Shown in pieces: positions 6,001 to 9,000 of a stretch of 36,154 nucleotides of DNA. How positions within the stretch are numbered: position 1 is the first letter of the stretch; every line of letters starts with the position of its first letter. The position numbers were made by a program. The stretch lies in the IMG/VR virus record IMGVR_UViG_2778261278_000009; one strand, written 5' to 3'. The stretch is from a virus (taxonomy: Duplodnaviria > Heunggongvirae > Uroviricota > Caudoviricetes).

Positions 6001-9000
6001 ATCCGGCATGTACAGGATTCATTGTCCTGCTCAAAGTCCATGCCATCAAACTGCTGGTTTTCATTGATGATGCGGGACCAGCCATCAACGCCCACCACCG
6101 GAACAATGCCGTTCTGCTTATCAGGGAAGGCGTAAATTTCTTTCGTCCACGGATTAAGGCCGTACTGGTTGGCGACGATCAGCAATGCGATGAACTGCGC
6201 ATCGCTGGCATCACCTTTAAATGCCGTCTGGCGAAGAGTGGTGATCAGTTCCTGTGGGTCGACAGAATCCATGCCGACACGTTCAGCCAGCTTCCCTGCC
6301 AGCGTTGCGAGTGCTGTACTCATCCGTTTTATACCTCTGAATCAATATCAACCTGGTGGTGAGCAATGGTTTCAACCATGTACCGGATGTGTTCTGCCAT
6401 GCGCTCCTGAAACTCAACATCGTCATCAAACGCACGGGTAATGGCTTTTTTGCTGGCCCCGTGGCGTTGCAAATGATCGATGCATAGCGATTCAAACAGG
6501 TGCTGGGGCAGGCCTTTTTCCATGTCGTCTGCCAGTTCTGCCTCTTTCTCTTCACGGGCGATCTGCTGGTAGTGACGCGCCCAGCTCTGAGCCTCAAGAC
6601 GATCCTGAATGTAATAAGCGTTCATGGCTGACCTCCTGAAAATGGCTGTGAAAATATCGCCCGCGAAATGCCAGGCTGATTAGGAAAACAGGAAAGGGGA
6701 TTAGTGATTCAGGCCGTTACCGCGTCCGTCGAGAAAAACTTCCACGAGCAAATCACGGGTATAAGTGCGCTCGATGCCGCGATGCAGATAAAGCCGTCCG
6801 CGTAAATTAGCTGATGCAGTCCAGGTACCATCTTTGTGTTTGACCAGCATTCCTGGCATGACCGCACCTCGATTAACGGTCTGCGTTCCATAATGTTGAT
6901 GAACCATAAAAACTCCTGCCCGTAAGCTGGGCTGCTGAACATATAGAGACTTCTGCGCGTATTCAGGCGGTGGATGGCCGCCGGTTGTCATAACTAAGCC
7001 GCCTCGTTGAAGCGACTAAGGTATGAAATGTTGAGTTAATTTCAGCTGGTCACACCGACGTTCACGCGTCCGTTTCACCCCTCGCACTCCCCGAAGCCTG
7101 CTGAAATTCAAACTGCGGATCTAAGCGGTCATCGCAACGGTGAATCAGGTAGTTGCCGTATCGTTGTGTTGTTGCGATGAACTTATTTAAAACTATAGTT
7201 GTTTTATTGGTTGTTTTAGATATAACTGGTTGTATTTAGGATGGATTTATTTTGTGACTTGAATCGCATAGCGATAACTGAAGCGAGGTTATGGTGGTTT
7301 TTTTAACGGTGTGTGATGAGGGGAGGGCAAAAGAAAACCCGGCACGGTGACCGGGATTCTTACGCCGTTAGGTAAAGATATTATTGCGGTGGCTTAATAT
7401 TACTACCTAGAGCAAAGATAGGAATTAGTTCTTTACTGAATGAGCACAATGCCCAGTTGATAATTTTTAATTGGTACTACCCATGCTTCCTATATGTCTG
7501 CGGCATGCTCCCAATAACCTTACCGAAGATGAACACCCGGTTCATCTCGTCTTTCTCGATCGGGTCCCACGGTGAGTAGCTTTTGTTATCAGAGATGACC
7601 AGCAGCTTATCCTTCATCATTTGCAGGCGCTTTACATGGGCTGTGTCGTCGTACAGAAACGCATAGATACCATCACCGTCGAAAGATTTAACTGTGATAT
7701 CAACGAACAGCAGATCACCTGGTTCGATCGTTCCTGACATGCTGTCACCACGCACGTTAATGATGCGGATATTTTCCGCCTTCCTACCATCGAACATGTG
7801 ACGAGCATCGTCAAACGAGTACTCAACCGAGCGTAGAACTTCTACAAACTCACGGTTGATGACTCCCGGCCCAGCACTGACTTCTATATCAAGAACGTCA
7901 ATCTTGAAGTATTTGGAATGGCTGACAGTTGATTGTATTGGTTGCACTGTACTGTCTGACATATTTCCAACGCCAGAAGATAACCATTCTGCGCGCACAC
8001 CCAAAGCGTTCGCGATCTCCACGATTTTAGTTGTTTGATTAGCTTTCCCTGTTTCGATTTTCTGAATAGCAGCCTGGCTAACCCCGACCAAATCCCCAAG
8101 CGCCTTTTGTGTAAGGCCTCGCGCTAATCTGGCTTCTTTAAGTCTTTCTGAGAGTGTTGTTTTCATATTCCAAATGTACAACCAAGGTTTTATTCCATCA
8201 AACGAAAATGGTTGTTGACTAAAAACAACCATAGTTTTAATCTTGATTCAAATTAACCACGGAGGTTGTTATGAACCCAGCTATCAAAACAGCGATCAAT
8301 ATCGTTGGTTCACAAAAGAAACTGGGCGCTGCTTGCGAAGTTTCACAGCAGGCCGTCTATAAGTGGCTTCACAACAAAGCAAAGGTATCCCCTGAACATG
8401 TCGGCAGCATTGTTACGGCTACTGGTGGAGTAGTGAAGGCATACCAGATTCGCCCGGATCTTCCGAAGTTGTTTCCACACACCGAAAAGAACGCAGCTTA
8501 AATTTCCATTTCACGCTCTTTAACAATAAGCAATCAACTTAACAGTCAATTCAAACTAAAGGAGTCAATTATGCAACCACTTACATACCAACAGACTAGC
8601 GGATTTAGCCCGACTGCGGTGATAAATCGTTCTCAAACAAAACAGGTGCCAGGCCACGAAAAAATCCGTGATGCCGTCCGCGCCTGGTCGGCTGTAGATA
8701 ATCAGGATGTCGTTGCCACACTCATTGTGAATGAGTATCGGGAGCAGGGCGGCGGCACCATCGATTTCCCTGATGATGTCAGCCGTGCACGCCAGAAGCT
8801 GTTCCGCTTCCTCGATAACAAATTCGATTCTGAAAAATACCGAAATAACGTGCGTGAACTGACCCCGGCAATTCTGGCGGTACTACCGCTGGAATATCGC
8901 GGTTACCTGGTTGAGCAGGATAGCTTCATGGCTAGGTTGGCTGAAATGGAAAAGGAACTCAGTGAGGCAAAACAGGCTGTCATTCTCAACGCACCACGCC

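Follow-up and report, generated by a model that had tools for sequence, protein, structure and literature searches.

The cI–cro region and its proposed operators

The stretch analysed here (IMG/VR record IMGVR_UViG_2778261278_000009; 36,154 bp, hereafter the window) contains the early control region of a lambda-like Escherichia coli prophage. It carries the traits of a lambdoid CI/Cro switch, namely divergent cI and cro genes, a right operator region (OR) with several sites over the promoters PR and PRM, a left operator region (OL), and a repressor that combines a helix-turn-helix (HTH) with an S24 peptidase domain. An initial annotation had described an immunity region unlike that of lambda, with motifs common to its left and right control regions, and all of the motifs that it quoted were recovered at their positions. 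The switch genes are as follows.

7477–8166, − strand: cI, repressor of 229 amino acids (aa) with HTH_3 and Peptidase_S24 domains (Pfam; S24 E = 1.2e-18)
Between 7477–8166 (−) and 8271–8501 (+): cI–cro intergenic region, 104 bp
8271–8501, + strand: cro, 76 aa, an all-alpha protein of the YdaS type (Pfam YdaS_toxin, PF15943, E = 4e-17; P22_Cro)
8571–9110, + strand: gene for a YdaT-type protein of 179 aa in the cII position (Pfam YdaT_toxin, PF06254, E = 8.5e-30)

The N-terminal domain of cI (residues 5–68) aligned end to end with the DNA-binding domain of the 434 repressor in a phmmer comparison with the Protein Data Bank (PDB) entries 1per and 2or1 (E = 4.5e-9, ~38% identity). Its recognition helix reads S30-Q-A-A-I-Q-K36, and the Gln at the first position of helix 3 is kept, matching Gln28 of 434, which reportedly contacts operator base 1 (work attributed to Anderson, Aggarwal and Harrison). 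The C-terminal half bears out the LexA-like S24 domain noticed earlier and contains Ala98-Gly99, Ser142 (in GDSM) and Lys179; because these residues are present, RecA-dependent self-cleavage is expected. A 251-aa open reading frame (ORF) for cI starting at 8232, inside OR1, was rejected because it would extend across OR and RefSeq does not adopt it. This longer form is annotated in two phage records (PV340559.1 and PP925837.1), RefSeq and the others giving 229 aa from 8166, and it is disfavoured because a −10-like hexamer is conserved 6 nt before the 8166 start.

Cro also matched the Cro of PDB 3bd1 (E = 7e-4), with the recognition helix S-Q-Q-A-V-Y-K. The 179-aa protein belongs to phrog_163 (‘CII-like activator’) and matched PDB 8bt1 only at E = 0.002; side by side, its similarity to the cII protein of HK639 is clear by eye and strongest C-terminally. 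In CP-933P, YdaS and YdaT are analogues of Cro and CII and not toxins (PMC8630535, PMC9986795); the word ‘toxin’ in the two family names is historical.

The control sites and predicted promoters are listed from left to right.

7185–7190, − strand: predicted pL −10 box, TTAAAT, placed by a geometry parallel to PR and to the pL/pR annotations of HK639
7189–7202: OL1, AAAACTATAGTTGT, a 14-bp near-palindrome in the pL spacer, nearly invariant among 27 unique relatives
7197–7207: deletion junction, with one copy left of the direct repeat AGTTGTTTTAT
7208–7213, − strand: pL −35 position after the deletion, CAACCA, with 2/6 matches to TTGACA
7220–7233: possible third left site, ATATAACTGGTTGT, of which only the TGGTTGT half fits the consensus
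8173–8201, − strand: predicted PRM, with −35 TTGATG (8201→8196), a 17-bp spacer and −10 TACATT (8178→8173)
8178–8191: OR3, ACAACCAAGGTTTT, a 14-mer match inside predicted PRM, with 0/14 columns varying among 17 unique relatives
8202–8215: OR2, ACGAAAATGGTTGT, one half consensus and the other weak, assigned by position and conservation
8215–8243, + strand: predicted PR, with TTGACT (8215–8220), a 17-bp spacer and TAATCT (8238–8243)
8225–8238: OR1, ACAACCATAGTTTT, in the PR spacer; among relatives the central base 8233 alone varies

The motifs AACTATAGTT (7191–7200), AACCATAGTT (8227–8236) and TGGTTGTT (7208–7215 and 8209–8216) had been taken for separate palindromes and arms. That division did not hold: both are overlapping parts of one putative 14-bp operator of the 434 style, A(C/A)AAC-N4-GTT(G/T)T. 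The heptamer TGGTTGT occurs 5 times in the 36,154 bp, equal to the shuffle expectation of 5.0, and all five TGGTTGT/ACAACCA copies lie in the two control regions (7208, 7227 and 8209 on the + strand; 8178 and 8225 on the − strand). The chance of finding every copy within those 160 bp is ~1.7e-12, or ~1e-8 when all heptamer classes are allowed for. Within the window, the 17-mer AAAACAACYATAGTTTT is found solely at 7189–7205 (−) and 8222–8238 (+) (0.11 expected), and the degenerate 14-mer AMAACNNNNGTTKT (AMAAC-N4-GTTKT) has exactly three sites, at 7189, 8178 and 8225 (0.22 expected). All three lie within OL or OR. No site of the HK639 specificity, ATAAC-N4-GTTAT, was found in the window.

The centres of the three OR sites are 24 and 23 bp apart. 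OR2 adjoins the PRM −35 box, overlaps the PR −35 box and is kept in the Klebsiella phage ST101-KPC2phi6.1 and in phiEt88; its centre lies 42.5 bp from the cI ATG, and an OR2 centred at about −42 from PRM is the arrangement of lambda OR2 and PRM. The geometry of predicted PR is the same as that of the pR annotated in HK639. The PRM −10 TACATT stands 6 nt upstream of the cI ATG, and a TAnnTT hexamer occupies this position in all five family members examined, so the cI mRNA is probably leaderless. Leaderless transcripts of lambda cI and of paaR2 in CP-933P are a precedent (PMC8630535).

Just past the PR −10, the element TTGATT-N6-AACCAC (8243–8260) resembles half of the CP-933P YdaT site, TTGATT-N6-AATCAA, which lies at the end of ydaS (PMC9986795). 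Variation in this element among relatives falls mostly in the N6, and the resemblance is perhaps due to chance because the YdaT-type protein of the window is only a distant relative of CP-933P YdaT. A CP-933P-type YdaT site at the cro end was also considered and rejected, since no inverted repeat occurs in 8380–8640 and the 8243–8260 element is only a partial match.

The left control region (~7185–7236) carries a rare deletion that the initial annotation did not contain. In an alignment with five relatives, whose OL reads AAAACTATAGTTGTTTTATCGTCAACAACAAAAGTTGTTTTATTGG, 24 bp (agttgttttatcgtcaacaacaaa), flanked by AGTTGTTTTAT repeats, are missing from the window. With them went OL2 (ACAACAAAAGTTGT), whose palindrome is the best among the sites, and the pL −35 box TTGACG (− strand), 17 bp from TTAAAT (7190→7185). 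The intact pL is built like PR, and phiEt88 has the same arrangement. Among 130 loci that have the pL leader in common (from an IMG/VR scan with a leader 18-mer, together with other loci), the deletion was seen in two, the window and E. coli 6EVA, and in none from the IMG/VR scan. Of 5426 complete E. coli genomes, two (CREC-544 and 6EVA) contain a 39-mer across the junction and 1509 the undeleted OL, and the −35/OL2 unit is kept in 62/64 loci of the window's type. Because the deletion took both OL2 and the −35 box, pL should be weak, pairwise cooperativity on the left should be lost and one full left site should remain. The TGGTTGT at 7227 is conserved; that at 7208–7214 is poorly conserved and probably not an operator.

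Operators of phage 434 are 14 bp long, with the consensus ACAA-N6-TTGT. The OL2 that the window has lost, as it stands in intact relatives, is an exact match to this consensus, and the 434 repressor might recognise it.

Relatives of the switch and alternative explanations

Relatives with the same operator layout were identified by tblastn. Identity of the cI N-terminal domain and of Cro was 74% and 87%, respectively, for the Klebsiella phage ST101-KPC2phi6.1, 61% and 66% for phiEt88, 58% and 67% for PA28 and Stx1a phages, and 49% and 62% for HK639. Three 14-bp OR sites were present at equivalent places in HK639, PA28, phiEt88 and ST101-KPC2phi6.1. The initial annotation had left the immunity specificity unassigned; it can now be placed in a family with these four phages, and the type itself is found in ~28% of complete E. 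coli genomes. The window-type N-terminal domain and OR occur in 1521 of the 5426 complete E. coli genomes, and the carriers include a prophage of the O157:H7 strain JEONG-1266. Six sequenced phages have the window type: PhiR34_1, Turner, PhiR26_1, IdasGreatGrand, PhiR47_2 and PhiR5_1.

Operator sequence and recognition helix vary together across these phages. Repressors with the helix SQAAIQK or SQANIQK, paired with Cro proteins reading SQQAV or SQAAV, go with ACAAC-type sites; SQPAIQK (HK639 and PA28) with Cro SQPAV goes with ATAAC-N4-GTTAT sites; and AQPTIWR, in phages of the D2 type, goes with ATA(G/C)C-type sites. Operator position 2 changes along with residue 3 of this helix, across at least three natural specificities on one scaffold. 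In the Klebsiella phage and phiEt88, AMAAC-N4-GTTKT was found only at OR and at an OL pair 24 bp apart, and in HK639 and PA28 the ATAAC pattern was found only at OR and OL. The type of OL was also that of the cI N-terminal domain in 54/55 loci of the window's type and 57/57 of the D2 type (111/112 scored, with shared ancestry ignored), despite differing cargo genes between OL and cI.

The single mismatch, E. coli HH45 (NZ_CP116411.1, 1415–3725), was added on purpose. This hybrid prophage combines a window-type OL (AAAACTATAGTTGT ... ACAACAAAAGTTGT, with TTGACG intact) with D2-type versions of the cI N-terminal domain, Cro and OR, the OR sites being ATACGC-type. The two parts were apparently joined by a crossover inside the shared cI C-terminal domain, and the HH45 pL should not be repressed by the resident repressor.

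Sequence variation outlines the proposed sites. In OR, 1/42 operator columns vary compared with 12/62 other intergenic columns (p = 0.008; 17 unique sequences, ancestry again ignored), and the lone variable operator column is a central, non-arm base. OL1 and OL2 together contain 4 singleton variants, compared with 69 in the surrounding 58 columns.

These observations suggest the following mechanism. Dimers of cI would bind the 14-bp pseudo-palindromes A(C/A)AAC-N4-GTT(G/T)T, so that cI at OR1 and OR2 would cover PR. From OR2, centred at about −42 beside the PRM −35 box, cI could activate PRM, and occupancy of OR3, inside PRM, would shut PRM off. The YdaS-type Cro would bind the same sites, the YdaT-type protein occupies the cII position, and RecA-stimulated cleavage at Ala98-Gly99 would induce the prophage. 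In intact relatives OL1 would act from within the pL spacer and OL2 from over the pL −35 box; in the window, the deletion between AGTTGTTTTAT repeats would leave a weak pL and bring cooperative or looped repression on the left down to one full site. A 434/lambda-like switch with its own specificity, together with the OL2/−35 deletion, is the best explanation of 6708–9659, and we give it a probability of roughly 80%.

Several points weigh against this explanation. PR, PRM and pL, which are predicted promoters, were not called by a simple promoter scan, and their −10 boxes are weak matches. The consensus fits only one half of OR2 and of the left half-sites, so these are assigned by position and conservation, and the conservation of OR2 could be due to the two overlapping −35 boxes and not to repressor binding. 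The neglect of shared ancestry bears on both the footprint and the OL/N-terminal-domain statistics. Because HH45 combines a window-type OL with a repressor of the other type, a mismatched OL can persist. Finally, literature searches with the operator strings and the PhiR phages returned no paper describing these operator sites.

The repeats could instead reflect nothing but homologous promoters, with pL and PR as copies of one cassette and no repressor sites among them. The longest match between OL and OR, of 19 nt (7187–7205 and 8222–8240), does span promoter spacer and −10, and the −35 boxes of the relatives, TTGACG and TTGACT, lie at an equal offset. We nevertheless regard this account as very improbable: OR3 carries the same 14-mer outside the PR/pL homology, the operator sites are dyad-symmetric, and across phages the arms vary with the recognition helix while promoter layout stays constant, the OL type following the N-terminal type of cI. 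Operator units other than the 14-mer can also be drawn, such as a 10-bp AACYATAGTT with separate TGGTTGTT arms, a 17-bp AAAAC-N7-GTTTT or a 25-bp ATGGTTGTT-N7-AACAACCAT, given that AACTATAGTT is a perfect palindrome, that 16/17 positions of the 17-mer agree between OL and OR, and that the 9-bp arms at 8208–8216 and 8224–8232 are perfectly complementary. Such units are improbable when sister phages are compared. At each of the three positions these carry a clean palindrome of 14 bp (such as ATAACCGAGGTTAT), and in OR1 of the Klebsiella phage (ACAACTAAGGTTTT) the arms of the 14-mer are retained, whereas the 10-bp palindrome and the 17-mer are both missing; the 17-bp and 25-bp readings were dropped for 14 bp after this comparison. 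In addition, the arms of the 25-bp repeat would lie on different faces of the helix because their centres are 16 bp apart, and the cI domain is 434-like, the sites of 434 being 14 bp long. That the heptamers are bound by another factor, either the YdaT-type protein or the host proteins IHF or DnaA, is hardly credible. YdaT of CP-933P does bind inverted repeats near ydaS (PMC9986795), and several of the left copies are half-sites in direct orientation. However, the known YdaT site is unrelated in sequence and lies at the ydaS end, operators identical in type occur in the Klebsiella phage and phiEt88, where the proteins annotated in the cII position have 73 and 98 aa compared with 179 aa in the window, and the motif type tracks the recognition helices of cI and Cro.

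A further alternative concerns the deletion alone, which would be neutral if pL had other determinants or if the leftward operon were driven from elsewhere. Here the evidence is more evenly spread, and we consider neutrality rather unlikely, though a serious contender. The −10 box, OL1 and the rest of the module are intact, the loss of exactly one operator period (24 bp) keeps the downstream phasing, and the deletion is present in at least two complete genomes. On the other hand, TTGACG has become CAACCA with no TG-extended −10 box to compensate, the −35/OL2 unit is present in 62/64 loci of the type and in phiEt88, and the deleted form is found in 2 genomes against 1509 intact.

A switch of the 434/lambda kind would leave the understanding of lambdoid switches unchanged. 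Its interest lies in an immunity type carried by about a quarter of complete E. coli genomes, with operators for which no description was found in the literature. The operator code could predict which prophages cross-repress and which are heteroimmune, and could supply orthogonal repressor/operator pairs. The 24-bp deletion would be a clean natural case of a single repeat-mediated event disabling a prophage promoter.

The pL leader, BoxA and the mosaic structure of the module

The remaining features of the foreign segment and its left flank are listed below.

4861–6625, leftward: exo, bet and gam
6701–6991, − strand: kil-type cell-division inhibitor gene, first of the leftward operon (phrog_294 ‘Kil protein’, E = 1.2e-38)
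6992–7180, − strand: untranslated pL leader of ~190 nt with hairpins (inverted repeats)
7338–7355, − strand: intrinsic terminator of the PRM (cI) transcript, from a terminator scan and alignment
8515–8526, + strand: rrn-type BoxA, GCTCTTTAACAA, an exact match to GYTCTTTAANA, unique in the window
9197–9659, + strand: non-lambda N-terminal part of O, with lambda identity back at 9660
9549–9664: five O iterons, TACCYGAATCAGGTAA, directly before the resumed lambda O identity

The pL leader folds with a minimum free energy of −60 kcal/mol (z = −2.2). Its hairpin arms lie at 7129–7138/7171–7180, close to the predicted transcription start, and, for a larger hairpin, at 7038–7049/7097–7108. The leader is common to at least two immunity types. 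Among 62 unique homologues analysed with RNAalifold, the stems showed one-sided GC/GU and AU/GU changes only, with no compensatory pairs. Rfam returned nothing relevant, either at gathering threshold for the whole window or by E-value for 6600–8700. Put antitermination RNAs of the HK022/HK639 kind are ~70 nt long, have two stem-loops and lie downstream of pL and/or pR. Such an RNA in the leader was rejected, since alignment with HK639 putL extends no further than a short segment by the transcription start. Three put RNAs were used to train a covariance model; the model detected putL and putR of phiEt88, which it had not seen, at 93 and 63 bits, and gave a best window match of 6.7 bits (E = 7) far from the promoters. 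These phiEt88 elements, at 3889–3966 (+) and 2581–2652 (−), are clear putL/putR sequences left unannotated in the record, and phiEt88 thus combines ACAAC-type operators with put antitermination.

An N-like peptide was also considered and rejected. The candidate, a 31-aa arginine-rich ORF at 7016–7111 (−) (…RLRGVRGVKRTRERR…), has a TTG start and no Shine-Dalgarno sequence, its frame is broken by 1- and 5-nt indels in relatives, and it is unlikely to be a gene. The interval from pL to kil contains no intact conserved ORF. A stretch of ~90 bp (7240–7330; GGATGGATTTATTTTGTGACTTGAATCGCATAGCGATAACTGAAG...) that lies between OL and the cI terminator is kept in both immunity types despite their differing operators and could be an upstream element of pL.

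The BoxA lies 14 nt past the cro stop and 45 nt before the start of the ydaT-type gene, which is the position of nutR in lambda, and no boxB hairpin follows it. The motif GYTCTTTAANA is the gamma-proteobacterial BoxA consensus (PMC5725501). All seven close relatives with a window-type cI that were inspected have a BoxA at the corresponding place, and the exact 12-mer occurs in 52 of 137 sequences compared; the exact 12-mer was absent from D2, HH45, HK639, phiEt88, PA28 and lambda. The element may serve Nus-dependent antitermination, or translational repression as at suhB.

These elements can be read jointly, in an account that we hold to be speculative and doubtful. Early operons with neither N nor a put RNA would use host Nus factors directly through BoxA, for N-independent, rrn-style antitermination or for translational control of the YdaT/O/P operon; the pL leader would be a second undescribed element; and, separately, the prophage would be a natural pL-down mutant, locked in the chromosome. 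If pL is indeed down, kil, gam, bet, exo, xis and int would be largely unexpressed, which is what would lock the prophage in place.

The module lies between lambda-like flanks. Window 4698–6707 is 97.4% identical to lambda 31185–33193, and window 9660–11098 is 95.3% identical to lambda 39119–40557, so the flanks described earlier as lambda-identical are more accurately 95–97% identical. The foreign segment, 6708–9659, comprises immunity and replication origin; its left junction (6707) is the 3′ end of kil and its right junction (9660) lies inside O, which follows the 179-aa YdaT-type gene together with P. O of the window is 67% identical to lambda O overall. Because the right junction is just past the iterons, the foreign segment includes the ori iterons and the N-terminal domain of O, which travel with it.

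In a tblastn search of the window, lambda N, cIII, kil, rexA, rexB, cI, cro, cII and Q gave no match better than E = 0.09; for N the absence comes from tblastn, with which a very divergent N is formally compatible. The slot equivalent to lambda rexAB holds no ORF, and the lack of rex, N and cIII reported initially was thereby upheld. In place of lambda kil, cIII, ea10, ral, sieB and N there is the kil-type gene, which RefSeq relatives annotate as ‘phage encoded cell division inhibitor’ with a start at the equivalent of 6907.

The proposed modular exchange stood insofar as a foreign segment lies between lambda-like flanks, but exchange ‘as a unit’ is too simple because the module is itself mosaic, in the cI C-terminal domain and in a cargo slot; this internal mosaicism was also absent from the initial annotation. 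The DNA of the cI C-terminal domain (7423–7929) is 95% identical to that of the D2-type immunity, and the identity with D2, 4A7, Lambda_4C10, 1W and 3W covers the S24 domain plus 55 bp downstream. The N-terminal domains are unrelated in helix sequence, which indicates domain-level shuffling at the linker, at about residues 76–80. The cargo slot, between the cI stop (7477) and the terminator (7355), is empty in the window and occupied in relatives by a GevA/GevT-like pair (ASCH domain), a HipA-like pair, a BamE-like lipoprotein gene or a DUF7946 gene, and in the Klebsiella relative by rexA/rexB. This slot is a hotspot, co-transcribed with cI, for toxin–antitoxin and defence-like genes.

Comparison with known systems

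The immunity type of the window is not that of lambda, 434, HK022, 933W or CP-933P, consistent with the initial view that it is not a classical characterised type. Phage 933W, suggested as a relative by the annotation of PA28, was rejected, its cI, Cro and operators being unrelated.

In phage 434, repressor and Cro have the recognition-helix motif T/K-Q-Q-S. The window is 434-like in its 14-bp operators beginning with ACAA, in its three OR sites and in a helix motif common to repressor and Cro, here S-Q-x-A. It differs in that the repressor helix reads Q-A-A-I-Q-K (SQAAIQK) and not Q-Q-S-I-E-Q (TQQSIEQ), and in that the second half-site is usually AAAAC, not ACAA, with position 5 fixed as C. 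Since one half of each window site, not both, reads ACAA, the pattern is not the imm434 specificity. There is also no DNA similarity to 434 among the phage matches, and Cro, by best match, is of the YdaS type and not a homologue of 434 Cro.

Compared with lambda, the window has the same divergent cI and cro, a tripartite OR with 23–24-bp spacing and OR2 at about −42 from PRM, a probably leaderless cI and an S24 self-cleavage domain, and its OL likewise lies to the left of the cargo slot (rexAB in lambda), followed by the terminator. Unlike lambda, it has no sequence homology in cI, Cro or cII, its operators are 14 bp long and not 17 bp, and it has no homologue of N, nutL, the boxB of nutR, cIII or rex.

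On the right of the switch, the CP-933P and Rac prophages likewise encode a Cro of the YdaS type and a protein of the YdaT type, but their repressors are PaaR2 and RacR, whereas the window has an S24 cI. The YdaT-type protein of the window matches CP-933P YdaT only at E = 0.002. The CP-933P repeat consensus is GTTTAGTAA (PMC8630535), and CP-933P operators were rejected as the identity of the window sites because the two differ in type (GTTTAGTAA compared with ACAAC-type sites).

HK639 (GenBank HM208537) is the closest described relative, and is said to have been reported by King et al. in 2011 (J Bacteriol 193:5784, cited in PMC9378689). It has a cI of 229–230 aa with an S24 domain, a YdaT-type ‘cII’ of 181 aa and no N. 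The genes for its homologous cI, Cro and cII-position proteins are ordered as in the window, its OR holds three 14-bp sites at ~24-bp spacing, and the geometry of PR, PRM and pL is shared. However, its operators are ATAAC-N4-GTTAT and its helix is SQPAIQK, with Pro where the window has Ala, and it carries the putL antiterminator RNA after pL, which the window lacks.

Phages of the D2 type (D2, 4A7, Lambda_4C10, 1W and 3W) have the same pL leader, kil, cargo slot and terminator, along with a YdaS-type Cro and a YdaT-type protein. They differ in their helix, AQPTIWR, and in their operators, of the ATAGC/ATACG-N4-GCTAT type in both OL and OR, and D2 has no BoxA between cro and ydaT. Judged from these sequence comparisons, the immunity type of the window is an undescribed specificity of an ordinary, well-understood kind of switch, and two of its features are less ordinary: the loss of OL2 and the −35 box, and early operons that have a single BoxA and neither N nor a put RNA.

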